DNA of 64,000 bases. Source: Armatimonadota bacterium. GTDB taxonomy: Bacteria; Armatimonadota; HRBIN16. Positions within the stretch are counted from its first letter, which is position 1; each line of letters opens with the position of its first letter. The translations under genes and the position numbers were made by a program. Positions 32,114-51,231 of this stretch are shown here, piece after piece. The notes under the pieces were generated by a model. The model was not told the DNA's origin. It saw only the letters and a list, made by a program, of their open reading frames with translations, and did no database searches. Location of the stretch: positions 672,001 to 736,000 of the forward strand of contig OY781964.1 of assembly GCA_963677485.1 (NCBI GenBank), written 5' to 3'.

Positions 32114-34372
32114 ATGCGAGGCCTTTACTTTACAGTCGTATCTCTAGCCGCGATGTGGCTATCCATCATCGGGTGCGTTGGGACCGCTGCACCGGCTGCT
32201 CCGATGTGCGAATACACCATCAACATGGCGGATGACCCCCACTGGACCGGGAACATCACCGAGTTACGGCTGGACCCCGTCAGCCAGGGAAAGACTGGCA
32301 GTGTGGATGTGGATTACATCCGTCTGATGCCCAACGGCCCTCAATGGAACTTCGATACCGGCTTGGATGGCTGGGGCAGCTACAGCAACAGCGTGGCCAT
32401 CACCTCCCCTGGCGGTCTATTACGGCTGGATATCACCGGCTTCGATCCCTTCATCGGCTTGAGTGGGCTGTCACTCGATGCGAGTAAAGTCAAGACACTG
32501 AAAATCCGGATGAGCAACAACACCGACCAGACCTTAGGCCAGATCCTGTGGCGTAATGAAACGGGCATGTATGCCATCACCTTTCGTAATGCGCCATCGG
32601 CGTTGTCTGGCGCGGTCAAACGCGCCTTGGCGAAGGGCGCCAGTCCGCCGGTGCCGATCCCCAGTGCCACATGGACAGCCACTGACCATCTGGGACGCAC
32701 GCTGCCGGGTCCAGGAAAGGCACCAGCACCGCGCAAAGGCAAATACATCGGCATCTACTATCTGTTATGGAGCCTGGCCACCTATGGCGGAGAAGAGCCT
32801 GACGGACCGTATGATCTGACGAAAATCCTAGCGAAATACCCCGAGGCGATGCAGGACATTAACCATCCTGCCCTGGGGGCTGTGGGCACGTTCCACCACT
32901 GGGGTAAGCCGCTGTTTGGCTATTACCGTAATGATGACCGGTGGGTTGTCCGCAAACATATGCGGATGCTGGCGGACGCCGGCGTGGACATGCTGCTGCT
33001 GGATGCCTCCAACGGCTTCAACTACGAGGACATGGTTGAGGTGCTGCTTTCGGTGCTCGATGAGCTGCAGGCCTTGGGCGAACCGACGCCTAAGCTGGCC
33101 TTCCATATGTATCCACAGGCAGACCCAGGCTCAAGGAAGGCACTACGGAACCTCTACCAGCAATTTTACCCGGGCGGCAAGCACGCCTCGCATTGGTTCC
33201 ACTGGGATGGTAAACCACTGATCGTGGGGGTTCCGTCCGACGATCTCGGCAAAGAGATACTGTGCTTCTACACCTGGCGCACACCCTACTGGTTGGGCAT
33301 GAACCCCAGGGTGGGGAGCTGGACTCTGGACGGGTATTACCCTTACTCCGAAGACAGTGCGTTCATGCTGAACGAGAACCTCGAGATCGAGCAGACCACC
33401 GTTCATACGGGAGCCAGCATGGGATCTCCGCCCATCTCAGACATGGGCAAGGGCAACGGACGATCCTGGCAGGGGCTGACCTGGGACGGCCACCGCGTGA
33501 CCACGCCTAGTGCGGTGGGGCACGGCTACATGTTCCAGCAGTGCTGGGATGTGGGGTTGAAGCTTGACCCGCCTTTCCTGCTGGTATACAACTGGAACGA
33601 GTGGCTGGTTCAGAAATACCCTCACATGAACGACGCCTCCAAGCCGATGTTTGTCGATGAATTCAACCAGGAGTTCAGCAAGGACATCGAGCCGATGGAG
33701 GGCGGCCATCGTGACGCCTATTTCCAGCAGATGATCGCCGGTATACGTCGCTACAAAGGGGTCGCCCCTGTGCCGACGGCACACTCCGTGAAGATCACTC
33801 TGGACGGTAAGGATGCCGACTGGAAGCGTGTGACACCGGAATTCAAAGACCACGTGCAGGATGTGCAGGCTCGCGACCACTTGCAGTACGGCAACAAGAA
33901 AGTGCGTCTGCAGGACAATACTGGCAGGAACGACATCATACTGAGCAAGATGACACGCGACCATACGAACCTTTATGCAATGGTGAAGACGGCTCGCAAG
34001 CTCAGCATCCCTGCAGCGTCTGACCGTAACTGGATGGTGCTGATGCTGGATGTCGATGAAAATGGATCGAACGGGTTCATGGGCTTCGATGTCGCCATCA
34101 ACCGGATGCGAGACAGCCATGGGCGCGCCTCGGTTCAGGTGCGTAAAGGCAAAGCGTGGAGCACTGTGGGCTGGGCGGAGATGGCCAAGGGCAGCCAGAT
34201 GCTGGAGTTGGCCATCCCGACCAAACTGTTGCCCAAAATGAGACACACGCTGAGTTTCCAGTGGACGGACAATGTCTGGCTGACAGAAGACTGGGGATCA
34301 GCCTACCTGCATGGCGACTCGGCTCCTGATAGCCCCTACCGCTACCAGGTGGTGCTGCCGTCGGTAAAGTAG
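32114..34372 (+). CDS. Secreted putative glycoside hydrolase (GH99/GH71-like TIM barrel, unclassified)
   Basis: Signal peptide; YYLLW, WGKPLFGYY, LADAGVD, WNEW, SKDIEP; lies in the GH cluster. Confidence 0.6.
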   Translation: MRGLYFTVVSLAAMWLSIIGCVGTAAPAAPMCEYTINMADDPHWTGNITELRLDPVSQGKTGSVDVDYIRLMPNGPQWNFDTGLDGWGSYSNSVAITSPGGLLRLDITGFDPFIGLSGLSLDASKVKTLKIRMSNNTDQTLGQILWRNETGMYAITFRNAPSALSGAVKRALAKGASPPVPIPSATWTATDHLGRTLPGPGKAPAPRKGKYIGIYYLLWSLATYGGEEPDGPYDLTKILAKYPEAMQDINHPALGAVGTFHHWGKPLFGYYRNDDRWVVRKHMRMLADAGVDMLLLDASNGFNYEDMVEVLLSVLDELQALGEPTPKLAFHMYPQADPGSRKALRNLYQQFYPGGKHASHWFHWDGKPLIVGVPSDDLGKEILCFYTWRTPYWLGMNPRVGSWTLDGYYPYSEDSAFMLNENLEIEQTTVHTGASMGSPPISDMGKGNGRSWQGLTWDGHRVTTPSAVGHGYMFQQCWDVGLKLDPPFLLVYNWNEWLVQKYPHMNDASKPMFVDEFNQEFSKDIEPMEGGHRDAYFQQMIAGIRRYKGVAPVPTAHSVKITLDGKDADWKRVTPEFKDHVQDVQARDHLQYGNKKVRLQDNTGRNDIILSKMTRDHTNLYAMVKTARKLSIPAASDRNWMVLMLDVDENGSNGFMGFDVAINRMRDSHGRASVQVRKGKAWSTVGWAEMAKGSQMLELAIPTKLLPKMRHTLSFQWTDNVWLTEDWGSAYLHGDSAPDSPYRYQVVLPSVK

Positions 34373-48290: not shown

Positions 48291-48947
48291 ATGAATATAA
48301 AACCTGAAACTAAATTCATGCTTACCGTTGCGGCCGTCGTAATCGTGTTAGGGGCCGTGACGGCCACGATCAACACAATCGCAAATCGTCCACCCGCGCC
48401 TCCGAAGGTCGCCAAGCCTGCGCGCGAGATATTTGATACCTCAGACCGTCCCTTTATTGGCCCGGCCGATGCGCCTGTGGTGGCCATCCAATTCAGCGAC
48501 TACTCCTGCCCTAGCTGTGCCCGCGGATCGCGACTGATACAGGAGCTCGTGAAACAATATAACCCCAAGCTCAAAATCGTGTTCCGCAATCTGCCCATGA
48601 CTAACATGCATCCCCTGGCTATGGAGCTGGCAGCGGCCGCAGAAGCCGCCCGGCTACAAGGCAAGTTCTGGGAGATGCATGACATGATGTATGCTAACCA
48701 GGACGATGCCGCCAGTAATATTCGTAAATATGCGAAATTCATCGGTATGGACATGAAGAAATTCGATGCAGACCGCGATGGTGAGGAGGCCCGCGTGGCC
48801 GTCACCAAAGACATGGAGCTGGCAGGCCGGTTTGGTATCAATAGCACCCCCTGCTATGTGCTGTTTGACGGCAACAAAGCCGGGATGATATACAGCGGCA
48901 ACGGCAAGTTTGAGCCTGCGTTGAAGAAGCTGATGGAATCCAAGTAG
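48291..48947 (+). CDS. DsbA-like thioredoxin-fold oxidoreductase
   Basis: FSDYSCPSC, QGKFWEMHD, GINSTP. Confidence 0.92.
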   Translation: MNIKPETKFMLTVAAVVIVLGAVTATINTIANRPPAPPKVAKPAREIFDTSDRPFIGPADAPVVAIQFSDYSCPSCARGSRLIQELVKQYNPKLKIVFRNLPMTNMHPLAMELAAAAEAARLQGKFWEMHDMMYANQDDAASNIRKYAKFIGMDMKKFDADRDGEEARVAVTKDMELAGRFGINSTPCYVLFDGNKAGMIYSGNGKFEPALKKLMESK

Positions 48948-49218
48948 ATACTGTGGCTTTTGTCAAGTCCCCAGGGGCAAATCTGGGGATTTGGACCTGA
49001 ATATCAGACACTGGCTCTAGACCACGTAGAATAACGTTAATGTGATGTTTGTGGCATATAGACCAAACCTGGATCCGCGACAGAAACAGGCTCAGATGGC
49101 ATCAGTTGGTCCGTAGCACCTCACATGACGCTCGGAGTCGCGAACGGACGTGCGACATCTTCGTGGCTTCGAAAGATATCGTTATGCTTCGATGCGTGCT
49201 ATCGGCAGACTGCCGCAG

Positions 49219-50511
49219 CTAGGATACTGGTGTCAGAACCCTCGGTTTGTTGCCCACCCGACTGCGCGATGGCCGGTTTCGGGATGCGGGCCGACCACCG
49301 CCGGCAGGAGTGGGCTCATTGGTGGGATTTCCATCCACGCATCCCCGTCTTGGAACGCTCACGTCCAGCCCAGGATCATTGCCTACACCGGCTATATCAT
49401 GGGCCGCTCCGGCACGATCCTGGACATGTCCGTTCGCGTCGGTCAGCGGTTGCTGGTTGGCCGCATTTGAAGCTTGTTCGATGCCGAAGTTTGGATCATA
49501 TGGCTGACGGCTGATTAATACCGACCACATGAGCACCAGCTGCTTGCGCATGATTGCGCACCGGACAACTCGCTTGGACTTCGGTTTCTTATTGGGATTC
49601 TTTACCAAATTCGGATGCTGCAGTTCCTTCACGAAGTCGTGCATGCTCTGGCCAAGCTTTTTCGACTTACCGTTGACCATCTTCACCACAGTGCTCGATC
49701 CACAGTAGAGTAATGTCCGCATATATCGGTCACCCATCTTGGATATGGAGCCGTCGTATGTCTTGCAGCTTCCTGACCGTTGCGGGCAGGGGTTCATTCC
49801 GAAATAGCGCGCGACCGCTTTCGATGTTTCAAATCGTTTAGCATCACCGATTTTCGCAAGGAAATAGCTTGCTGTGACGTCGCCGATACCCGGAATGCTC
49901 TTCAGCAGAGCCATATCTTCGGTCATCTGCGGTGAACTCATCACAAGCTCTTTGATCTGAACATCAAGCTTTTTGATGCCCATGTCATGAAAAGCGATCA
50001 TCTCGTCCAGCACTGTGCTCCGCGTAAGCCGACAGCTTTGGCGCTGGGCGATCGCCTGTCTGTGTTGCACCAGCATACGGCGGTCATTGGTGTAACCAAT
50101 AAGCGCATCATAGCATGCTAGACGAGGGACATAGAGTGAGACATTGTGACTTTTCACATAGTCAGCGATTAGCACGCTGTCAGAGCAGTCCGTCTTTTGT
50201 TCCCAGCCTTTGGCTTTGCGGTGATAGAGAACCCGTTTTGGCTCCAGTTGGACAGCATCGTGCTGGTGCTCGTAGAGGTAATCAAGCAGCGGTCGGCTGT
50301 AAGGCCCGGTGGCTTCAGCCGCATACAAGGCGGGAGTTCGGGTAAGCTTCTTCACCCATGACAACAACTCCTTGTATCCGGCCTTGTTGTTCTTGAACTC
50401 CTTATGGTCTATCGGCTTGTGCGATGAACCTAATACAGACGCGTCAAACGTCAATTTCGAGATGTCGATCCCGACATAATGGATGTAGATTTTGTCTTCA
50501 ACTTCGTGCAT
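49219..50511 (-). CDS. IS110 DEDD recombinase with long C-terminal tail
   Basis: VGIDISK, AEATG, KTDCSD, SIPGIG, RSGS; GGAG RBS before ATG 50511. Confidence 0.95.
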   Translation of the reverse strand: MHEVEDKIYIHYVGIDISKLTFDASVLGSSHKPIDHKEFKNNKAGYKELLSWVKKLTRTPALYAAEATGPYSRPLLDYLYEHQHDAVQLEPKRVLYHRKAKGWEQKTDCSDSVLIADYVKSHNVSLYVPRLACYDALIGYTNDRRMLVQHRQAIAQRQSCRLTRSTVLDEMIAFHDMGIKKLDVQIKELVMSSPQMTEDMALLKSIPGIGDVTASYFLAKIGDAKRFETSKAVARYFGMNPCPQRSGSCKTYDGSISKMGDRYMRTLLYCGSSTVVKMVNGKSKKLGQSMHDFVKELQHPNLVKNPNKKPKSKRVVRCAIMRKQLVLMWSVLISRQPYDPNFGIEQASNAANQQPLTDANGHVQDRAGAAHDIAGVGNDPGLDVSVPRRGCVDGNPTNEPTPAGGGRPASRNRPSRSRVGNKPRVLTPVS

Positions 50512-50545
50512 GTGGTAATCTCCAGTTGGTAGTGATTGATGGTGC

Positions 50546-50745
50546 AATCAACCAAATCAGCCTAGCGAACACGGGGTTTTCTCCCAAGATACTGTTCGAT
50601 ATGGGTTGATTGGGAGAAGGATGCCTATCTACGTCACGGTGTTTTCCACCAGGGGCGGTTCCGGCATCCAATCCTTCTCCTTCACCCCCAGCTAAGGGGT
50701 GAGATTAGCTCCCCGACTGCTTTTGGTGTCCGGGGAGCTCACCAT
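50546..50745 (-). ncRNA. Bridge RNA (target-binding and donor-binding loops)
   Basis: Two stem-internal-loop domains. The guides GAACCGCCCCT/GTAG and ACAGTATCT/CTAG match the target and donor junctions. Confidence 0.85.
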
Positions 50746-50757
50746 ATATAGCGTACT

Positions 50758-50780
50758 AGGGGCGGTTCGCGAACCGCCCT
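50758..50780. repeat. GTAG REP split by IS110 (pre-insertion GTAGGGGCGGTTCGCGAACCGCCCT)
   Basis: Palindrome GGGCGGTTCGCGAACCGCCC; its leading GT lies at 48944-45. Confidence 0.8.
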
Positions 50781-50791
50781 TGCATATGATC

Positions 50792-50991
50792 CTTCGCGTG
50801 AGACCTCCCTATTCGTGGTTAAATGGCCCGGACAAGTAAGATGAGTCAGACGTGTAGGACGTGAGGCCCACCTCATCGGCATCATCTGCGCCAGCGGTGG
50901 ATGGTCCTTCGCGTCTTCGCGTCTTCGCGTGAAACCTCCCTGTTCGTGGTCAAATGGCCCGGGCAAGCAAGATGAGTCAGACGAGTAGGAC
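50792..50991. repeat. 69-bp direct repeat x2 plus (CTTCGCGT)3
   Basis: 50792-50860 versus 50923-50991, 6 mismatches. Confidence 0.85.
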
Positions 50992-51031
50992 ATCTGGTTA
51001 GCCACCCATACCAAACACCGCCCGGGGGCTC

Positions 51032-51060
51032 TTGACAAACTGCCCATTGTCTGGCATAAT
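51032..51060 (+). promoter_or_regulatory. Sigma70 promoter of tRNA-Met-hisS-aspS
   Basis: TTGACA-N17-CATAAT, 12 nt before the tRNA. Confidence 0.85.
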
Positions 51061-51072
51061 ATTTTTGCCTAT

Positions 51073-51149
51073 GGCGGAGTAGCTCAGTTGGTCAGAGCAT
51101 ACGGTTCATACCCGTAGGGTCGACGGTTCAAATCCGCCCTCCGCTACCA
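51073..51149 (+). tRNA. tRNA-Met (CAT), probably elongator
   Basis: Cloverleaf with anticodon arm TACGG-TTCATAC-CCGTA, GGTTCAA T-loop and encoded CCA; lacks the initiator GGG/CCC stem. Confidence 0.93.
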
Positions 51150-51231
51150 ACTTTCACTGGCGACAACCGCGCAAGCAGTTGTCGCTTTTTTCATTCACGG
51201 CACCTGATAGGTCTTCAAAGGAGAACAGCCC

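Follow-up and report, generated by a model that had tools for sequence, protein, structure and literature searches.

Does the insertion sequence carried by a 64,000-nucleotide (nt) stretch of an Armatimonadota bacterium genome (contig OY781964.1 of assembly GCA_963677485.1, positions 672,001 to 736,000; called the window below, position 1 being its first letter) encode an RNA guide that can be read against its own target and donor DNA? The element in question is a 1812-bp IS110-group element on the minus strand (48946-50757, a length counted with the right-hand CT). Judging from its sequence, we give a probability of about 0.9 to the reading that it is an autonomous insertion sequence moving by bridge-RNA-guided recombination like IS621. 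The recombinase, the noncoding RNA, both guide loops, and the CT core by which an IS621-type bridge system is recognized can all be read here, and we regard the element as a divergent new member of a well-described family and not as a new kind of system, the orthologue lists of Durrant et al. 2024 and Perry et al. 2025 lying outside the comparison. An earlier sequence-only reading, made from the letters without database searches, had proposed a complete bridge-recombinase system at 48946-50780. The helices, guide strings, and coordinates that it gave are all present on the minus strand, base for base, with one correction: position 50780 takes in the 23-bp target hairpin of REP (repetitive extragenic palindromic) type at 50780-50758; the element itself ends at 50757, or at 50759 with the left CT.

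The recombinase is encoded by an open reading frame (ORF) of 430 amino acids (aa) at 49219-50511 on the minus strand, starting with the ATG at 50511 behind a GGAGA ribosome-binding site (50523-50519). Two Pfam domains, DEDD_Tnp_IS110 (PF01548, E = 1.8e-21) and Transposase_20 (PF02371, E = 4.4e-22), were found well over their cut-offs, and the matches to solved structures were limited to the recombinases of IS621 (8wt6, E = 2.5e-28) and ISCro4 (9t56, E = 5e-26). The phmmer alignment to 8wt6 places residues D16, E66, D108, D111, and S246 opposite the catalytic residues of IS621, in agreement with the DEDD and SG motifs noticed earlier, and all five are invariant across the clade alignment. The composite active site of the IS621 recombinase has been described by Hiraizumi et al. 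(PMC11208158).

The ends of the element can be read from a paralogous empty repeat nearby, ACCCCGCCC-CT-ACGCCAGACCATC, which is uninterrupted and holds a single CT. Its occupied counterpart is ACCCCGCCC-CT-[AGTACGC...ACAGTAT-CT]-ACGCCAGACCATC, with the element between two CTs of the same sequence, and the boundaries are therefore fixed. In the window, the left copy of the core lies at 50759-50758, outside the 1812 bp, and the right copy at 48947-48946. The left target arm is made of the final 9 to 11 bases of the REP-like hairpin AGGGCGGTTCGCGAACCGCCC and left CT core (50758-50780, minus strand), and the right target arm is the AC of the other flank (48944-48945, outside the element). Within the element, the right donor arm AGTACGC occupies 50757-50751 (in a feature spanning 50750-50757), where the relatives described below have TGTATGC, and the left donor arm ACAGTAT with the right CT core occupies 48946-48954 and is identical in the four relatives examined. 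The earlier reading gave IS621 the same arm, and a published IS621 donor oligonucleotide does contain ACAGTATCTTGTATGC (PMC13396178).

The 246-nt leader between the left end and the gene (50757-50512) has an unconstrained minimum-free-energy fold of -88 kcal/mol (z = -3.45), as good a fold arising in 0 of 200 shuffles, and this fold reproduces the named helices, i.e., two 5' hairpins and then two successive stem/internal-loop/hairpin domains. The predicted bridge RNA is ~200 nt long and would span ~50743 to 50546 on the minus strand. Its first 5' hairpin (50707-50739) pairs AGCTCCCCG (50739-50731) with CGGGGAGCT (50715-50707), and the second (50682-50702) pairs TCACCCC (50702-50696) with GGGGTGA (50688-50682). 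The target-binding domain (68 nt, 50613-50680) is closed by the stem GGAGAAGGA (50680-50672) with TCCTTCTCC (50621-50613) and by an inner helix of GATGCC (50668-50663) with GGCATC (50625-50620); it presents the left target guide GAACCGCCCCT (50661-50651, with its 9-nt core at 50659-50651), an inner hairpin (50651-50637), the right target guide GTAG (50632-50629), and the handshake bases AU (50628-50627). The donor-binding domain (66 nt, 50546-50611) is closed by AATCAACC (50611-50604) with GGTTGATT (50553-50546) and presents the left donor guide ACAGTATCT (50595-50587), an inner hairpin (50586-50572), the right donor guide GTTCGCTAG (50570-50562), and the handshake bases GC (50561-50560). CTAG, given earlier as the right donor guide, is contained in this string and is incomplete by itself, the full guide being GU-UC-G-CUAG.

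On an alignment of six sequences, 84.8% of the cells of the named structure are paired, compared with 35 to 50% in slid controls, and both sides of a pair have changed in eight cases versus 1.5 in shuffles (0 of 500 reach eight). In the first 5' hairpin, 90.7% of cells are paired and three of the nine pairs show changes on both sides between lineages; the low column count of the second hairpin results from a one-column shift in the MAFFT alignment, and its equivalent in the relatives is TCACACC...GGGGTGA. The extra 5' hairpin that had been proposed is thus seen both here and in the relatives, compared with the single 5' stem-loop of IS621 (PMC11208158). The pair co-variation supports the bridge RNA structure and is not strong alone, the six sequences representing two deep lineages.

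The guides were compared with the DNA they should read. The left target guide is identical to the left flank at 11 of 11 bases (50768-50758), and the left donor guide to the right end of the element at 9 of 9 (48954-48946). In the whole window the 11-mer has two occurrences, one within the first loop and the other as the left flank, for 0.04 expected, and none of 100 shuffles reaches two; the 9-mer occurs three times for 0.29 expected, and none of 100 shuffles reaches three. The third ACAGTATCT, at 33255-33263 in coding-looking sequence, was considered and set aside as an unrelated chance match. At the level of pairing, the left target guide ACCGCCCCU is directed at the bottom strand of ACCGCCC-CT and GUAG at CT-AC, the latter pairing being available in 11 of 12 genomic copies. 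The left donor guide ACAGUAUCU reads ACAGTAT-CT, and the right donor guide GU-UC-G-CUAG pairs with CT-AGTAC in the discontiguous pattern of IS621, that is, two bases paired, two flipped out, one G-T, and four paired. Moreover, the base after GUAG is an A that would pair with donor T7, and the base after CUAG is a G that would pair with target C7, which are the handshake positions.

The genome carries 12 near-identical copies of the element with the same ends, 10 of them 1812 bp long with an intact ORF. Variation among the 12 amounts to six single-base positions, the left end and leader being identical in all, and the flanks differ among all 12. CT is present at both junctions in 12/12 copies and AC on the right in 11/12 (AT in the other), and 10/12 follow immediately 3' of a hairpin belonging to a single REP-like family, AGGGCG[GAT]TTC[GT]CGAA[CTA]CGCCC. 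As had been proposed as a check on the element, the other 11 copies share its boundaries and sit in closely similar CCC-CT-AC sites. In a census that took every CT of the genome and was restricted to sites that either hold the element or have AC on the right, occupancy followed the 9-nt match: six of nine perfect sites were occupied; at one mismatch, the element sat in five sites (one with AT on the right) and was absent from 144; at two mismatches, all 584 sites were empty. Two copies at different loci (G000:C1:1369172-1370993 and 1871157-1872978) carry an identical 16-bp frameshifting deletion, equivalent to 50058-50073 of the window; the defective copy was therefore mobilized, presumably by recombinase supplied in trans. 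The element has apparently been active recently, and we infer that it may still be so.

The recombinase clade is very small, with five proteins 61 to 95% identical (430 to 433 aa) and two proteins 41 to 42% identical (400 aa); the other matches, among the best 120 of 768, are at ~30% identity or less and mostly 306 to 375 aa long. The DNA of the five close relatives was not recovered in one metagenome scan, and because of this the co-variation analysis rests on the lineage that is ~42 to 45% identical in protein where measured. It used type B elements of the same genome, type C elements (nine copies, from a sister genome within the genus), and metagenome contigs L103 to L105; L106, with an unrelated upstream region, was excluded. 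The RNA scaffold is common to this element and its relatives, and the first loops of the latter read GTCGCGCCCCT, GGGTCATCCCT, GTGTGGCCCCT, and GTCGTGCCCCT, facing, in the same order, their own left flanks ACCGCGCCCCT, GGGTCATCCCT, GGGTTGCCCCT, and GCCATGCCCCT. Over the seven noncore bases, the guides of the five elements match their own flanks at 7, 7, 7, 6, and 6 positions, and cross matches give 2 to 6, with one tie. The relatives carry different target guides that match their own flanks, as expected of an IS621-type system. On the donor side, 4/4 relatives have the donor ACAGTAT-CT-TGTATGC and the guide AU(U/A)U-A-CAAG; the right donor of this element differs from theirs at two positions (AGTAC versus TGTAT), with changes in its guide at precisely the two positions that pair with them (CUAG versus CAAG and GU versus AU). 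Altogether, these elements form a natural retargeting series of five related elements with one scaffold and five target guides, one of them with a changed right donor arm and a compensating guide. Type B (~45% protein identity), with its own target guide, is found at G000:C1:1296666-1298066 (L014/L018) and 2667747-2671719 (L013/L017), the second copy having a partial protein match (aa 125-414) and a flank that agrees with the guide at 7/9.

We propose a model in which a ~200-nt RNA would be transcribed from the left end of the element and would fold into the two 5' hairpins, the target loop, and the donor loop. The left target guide, (A)ACCGCCCCU, together with GUAG would read ACCGCCC-CT-AC, which is the 3' arm and tail of the REP-like hairpin, and the left donor guide together with the discontiguous GU-(UC)-G-CUAG would read the joined ends ACAGTAT-CT-AGTAC. 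The DEDD/Ser recombinase would then exchange strands at the CT core. Joining of the ends would also create a putative junction promoter: by coordinates, the right-end TTGACA (candidate -35 box, 48966-48961, minus strand) would precede the left-end TACGCT (candidate -10 box, 50755-50750, overlapping the right donor arm) with a spacer of 17 nt. The relatives keep TTGACA at the same distance from the core and would give TTGACA-17-TATGCT, and such an arrangement at the circle junction has been described for IS110 elements (PMC11208160). The RNA start, the RNA-protein binding, and the circle intermediate in this model are inferred from sequence features.

Several observations weigh against this reading. 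The structural co-variation comes from two deep lineages and six sequences, and a search of Rfam 15 over 48500-51200 (E <= 1) returned a single match, a tRNA at 51073-51146, the presence of a bridge-RNA family in Rfam 15 not being established. As for the guides, L103 and L104 match their own flanks at 8/9, and the left donor guide of the relatives is imperfect over the core (ACAGTATCA or ACAGTAACA versus ACAGTATCT). Three perfect target sites hold no element, including one that has the REP hairpin and an 11/11 match, and in the ungapped register the twelfth copy (genome position 2863764) departs from the guide at three bases. The candidate -10 box TACGCT agrees with the consensus at 3/6 positions only, and a promoter scan of the integrated sequence found no minus-strand promoter. 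Expression and junctions were looked for in assembled contigs of public runs, where stretches without cover in RNA runs are uninformative. In three metatranscriptome runs (two studies), contigs of relatives ~86 to 98% alike span the leader along with portions of the ORF; these contigs also extend into the REP flank and could derive from contaminating DNA, so that they give at most a weak hint of transcription. In one DNA-type run, the element has a depth ~10 times that of its flanks, and no contig joining right end to left end was found among its assembled contigs; the sole joint reported is a diverged 88-nt stretch in one RNA contig. The missing junction says little because assembled contigs drop rare variants. 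Separately, the one promoter-like match in the region, at 49005-49032 on the plus strand, points antisense into the right end and is no more than expected by chance (1 versus 1.6).

Part of this evidence would suit a genuine bridge-RNA IS110 element that is now dormant, the 12 copies being relics of one past burst or having spread by duplication. We consider this possible and rather unlikely. Neither a circle junction nor a polymorphic insertion was seen in the assembled contigs examined, the -10 box is weak and the integrated state shows no promoter, perfect target sites are still vacant, and 2/12 copies are frameshifted. Against dormancy, the loss of rare variants from assembled contigs makes the absent junction a poor witness, the ORF is intact in 10/12 copies, only six single-base differences have accumulated over 1812 bp in 12 copies, every copy has different flanks, and a defective copy has moved to a second site.

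That the guide matches are incidental, the recombinase finding the REP hairpin by protein-DNA or structure recognition alone, appears highly improbable. The hairpins of one REP family do make up 10/12 targets, and the ISPpu10 preprint (bioRxiv 10.64898/2026.03.19.712850) reports an added specificity from the target stem-loop. However, in each of five elements whose targets differ, the left target guide matches, occupancy drops steeply with guide mismatches even among REP variants of the same shape, the 11-mer is expected by chance only 0.04 times per window, and IS621 needs its RNA in vitro (PMC11208160).

A last alternative concerns the left boundary. The string CCCCT-AGTACG(C), which runs from the left target arm through the core into the first 6 to 7 bases of the element, occurs at ~8 places without the element in its own genome (REP-CT-AGTACG(C) sites of G000:C1 near 264922, 1990840, 2010709, 2382961, 2851066, 2869711, and 3436709). 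In the sister genome G003, it occurs at eight non-rRNA sites (L158 to L162, L164, L167, and L168), six of them on the same REP family, and at three more in rRNA. It could be argued from these sites, which follow REP hairpins in both genomes, that AGTACGC belongs to the repeat, that the element starts 7 nt further in, and that the CT core is not used as read, a proposal we find hardly credible since the empty and occupied copies of ACCCCGCCC-CT-ACGCCAGACCATC place the boundary at CT, right flanks continue with AC and then variable sequence and not with AGTACGC, the right donor guide pairs with CT-AGTAC, and the relatives have TGTATGC in the same position with a matching guide. No copy of the element was found in G003 with the protein query at E <= 1e-40, and the variant sites are therefore natural REP variants and not footprints; the idea that solo CT-AGTACGC sites were left by excision was ruled out on this ground. 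More tentatively, and we would not expect it to hold, such REP variants could act as surrogate left ends; if true, this would let the element excise together with neighboring host DNA.

The right end holds a second structured region. The sense strand of 49462-49331, under the ORF tail, folds as one long imperfect hairpin of ~130 nt with 47 pairs. Over six sequences, 95.7% of its cells are paired, compared with 23 to 38% in slid controls, and six pairs show changes on both sides versus 1.3 in shuffles (0 of 500), numbers that are flattered, the structure being derived from the same alignment as its statistics. Three invariant G-U pairs would be mismatches on the opposite strand. Codon-level comparisons point to the same region: third-position identity between this element and types B and C is 0.26 to 0.46 along the gene and 0.65 to 0.76 in aa 345-400, where first and second positions stay at ~0.6 to 0.7. 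In the relatives' contigs, the differences listed in 49831-49888 are all at third positions (9/9), and the at least 20 differences in 49342-49474 split 9, 3, and 8 over the codon positions. In codons 345 to 430 (49476-49219), the ORF tail that overlies the hairpin, conservation does not follow codon periodicity. The RNA-library contig of the ~86% identical relative has at least 14 differences in the hairpin region, and none among those listed breaks a pair: seven are at unpaired positions, four turn a mismatch into a pair, two keep a pair, and one leaves a mismatch. A covariance model of the hairpin found matches in clade members only, among 94 sources that include ~80 loci of more distant IS110 elements.

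The protein over this region looks different from the core. The conserved recombinase core ends near aa 345, and the ORF extends ~85 codons beyond the usual end of IS110 recombinases, which falls shortly after the YDP motif. AlphaFold2 gives this low-confidence tail (aa 346-430) a pLDDT (predicted local distance difference test) score of 21 to 33 for aa 342-430, on a shallow alignment of eight sequences. A folded domain in the tail is unsupported by these values, and the tail is probably disordered in the model. One might imagine that this small clade carries an extra functional module absent from IS621-type systems, namely the conserved, strand-specific hairpin, which the ORF merely reads through, a suggestion that we consider rather unlikely. 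The hairpin could serve as a regulatory RNA structure on the recombinase mRNA or, as a bolder option, as a folded single-strand element on an excised top-strand circle, e.g., a second-strand priming site; recent preprints report single-stranded circles of this kind and copy-out models for IS110 elements. A role as a second or target guide RNA was ruled out because the hairpin sequence stays conserved across elements whose targets differ.

How far does the element resemble the known systems? The comparison with IS621 was made through the text of the papers and the Protein Data Bank protein sequence; for IS621 DNA, a blastn search at distant settings with the type B left end found no match in Escherichia coli genomes, and the Brenneria and Pectobacterium loci L032 and L035 proved to be other IS110 elements with a different donor. 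The IS621 bridge RNA has a 5' stem-loop at nt 1-33, a target loop (nt 34-98) whose left and right guides are 9 and 4 nt long, and a donor loop (nt 110-177) with a left guide of 8 nt and a right guide of two paired, two flipped-out, one G-T, and four paired bases, handshake bases following directly after each right guide (PMC11208158); its wild-type target is ATCAGGCCTAC (PMC11208160). The present element shares with IS621 and IS622/ISCro4 (PMC11208160, PMC11208158, and the Perry et al. 2025 preprint) the DEDD RuvC-like domain and the Tnp domain with its catalytic Ser. It also shares with these systems a bridge RNA (predicted here) encoded in the left end upstream of the gene, the CT core, a candidate -35 box in the right end, nearly the same domain sizes (68/66 nt versus 65/68 nt in IS621), the 9-nt left guide, the 4-nt right target guide, the discontiguous right donor guide, the handshake bases, an identical left donor arm ACAGTAT-CT, and a REP-type target ending in CT-AC. 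The donor of the relatives is the same as the stretch ACAGTATCTTGTATGC of the IS621 donor oligonucleotide (PMC13396178), in agreement with the remark of Durrant et al. that conservation is higher in the second loop and the donor than in the target (PMC11208160). In contrast to IS621, the protein alignment spans aa 10-274 only and relatives outside the small clade are at most ~30% identical, there are two 5' hairpins instead of one, and AGTAC replaces TGTAT as the right donor arm, the guide having changed to compensate. Moreover, the recombinase has 430 aa compared with 326 to 341 aa, with an insertion near aa 293-310 and the ~85-aa tail; a ~530-nt right end with a conserved 130-nt hairpin extends beyond the conserved core; and the host is an Armatimonadota bacterium, the name borne by cluster mates (90% identity or more) of two housekeeping proteins encoded nearby, and not E. 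coli.

Other IS110 elements offer partial parallels. ISPpu9 and ISPpu10 of Pseudomonas putida, compared by description (PMC12288879 and bioRxiv 10.64898/2026.03.19.712850), are likewise IS110-group insertions beside hairpins of REP or BIME (bacterial interspersed mosaic element) type, and ISPpu10 has a GC-rich stem-loop 5' of the core. Unlike the present element, with its CT core and putative junction promoter, ISPpu9 is described as recombining at AG with no junction promoter. Extra RNA modules and trans-mobilized derivatives are described for ISPpu9 (PMC12288879), whereas the hairpin found here lies inside the ORF tail and is not a separate small RNA gene flanked by its own ends. The IS1111 group, with its seekRNA or bridge RNA in the right end, shares the recombinase family and a long structured right end, but both guide loops of the present element lie upstream of the gene and not downstream as in that group. 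Published precedents exist for REP targeting in which a stem-loop precedes the core on its 5' side (ISPpu10), for copy-out models, and for trans-mobilized derivatives (ISPpu9).

Durrant et al. 2024 predicted bridge RNAs in 85.7% of the IS110-group elements of ISfinder and in thousands of orthologues and analyzed thousands of RNA-target pairs (PMC11208160), and the preprint of Perry et al. 2025 tested 72 orthologues. The current understanding of how bridge systems work is unchanged by the element described here. Its value is as a fully readable natural example of bridge-RNA targeting, from a little-studied phylum and a recombinase lineage far from IS621 (~30% identity). It is useful for picking divergent orthologues to try as programmable recombinases and for asking whether scaffold features such as 5' hairpin 2, the tail of the ORF, or the hairpin of the right end can be dispensed with.

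Some features around the element deserve mention. A DsbA/thioredoxin-like ORF (48291-48947, plus strand) ends at a TAG stop (48945-48947) that overlaps the right CT core; the reconstructed empty site retains the same stop, and this gene is therefore unaltered by the insertion. The final codons and stop of the recombinase ORF (49219-49233, minus strand) read ACACCAGTATCCTAG, which resembles the joined donor ACAGTAT-CT-AG plus one extra base; this could be a vestige of an earlier right end, or chance. A BIME-like cluster at 50790-51000 (minus strand), upstream of the target REP, consists of two tandem copies of a ~90-nt repeat (GTCCTAC...CACGCGAAG), and the tRNA gene at 51073-51146 (plus strand) lies just past it.

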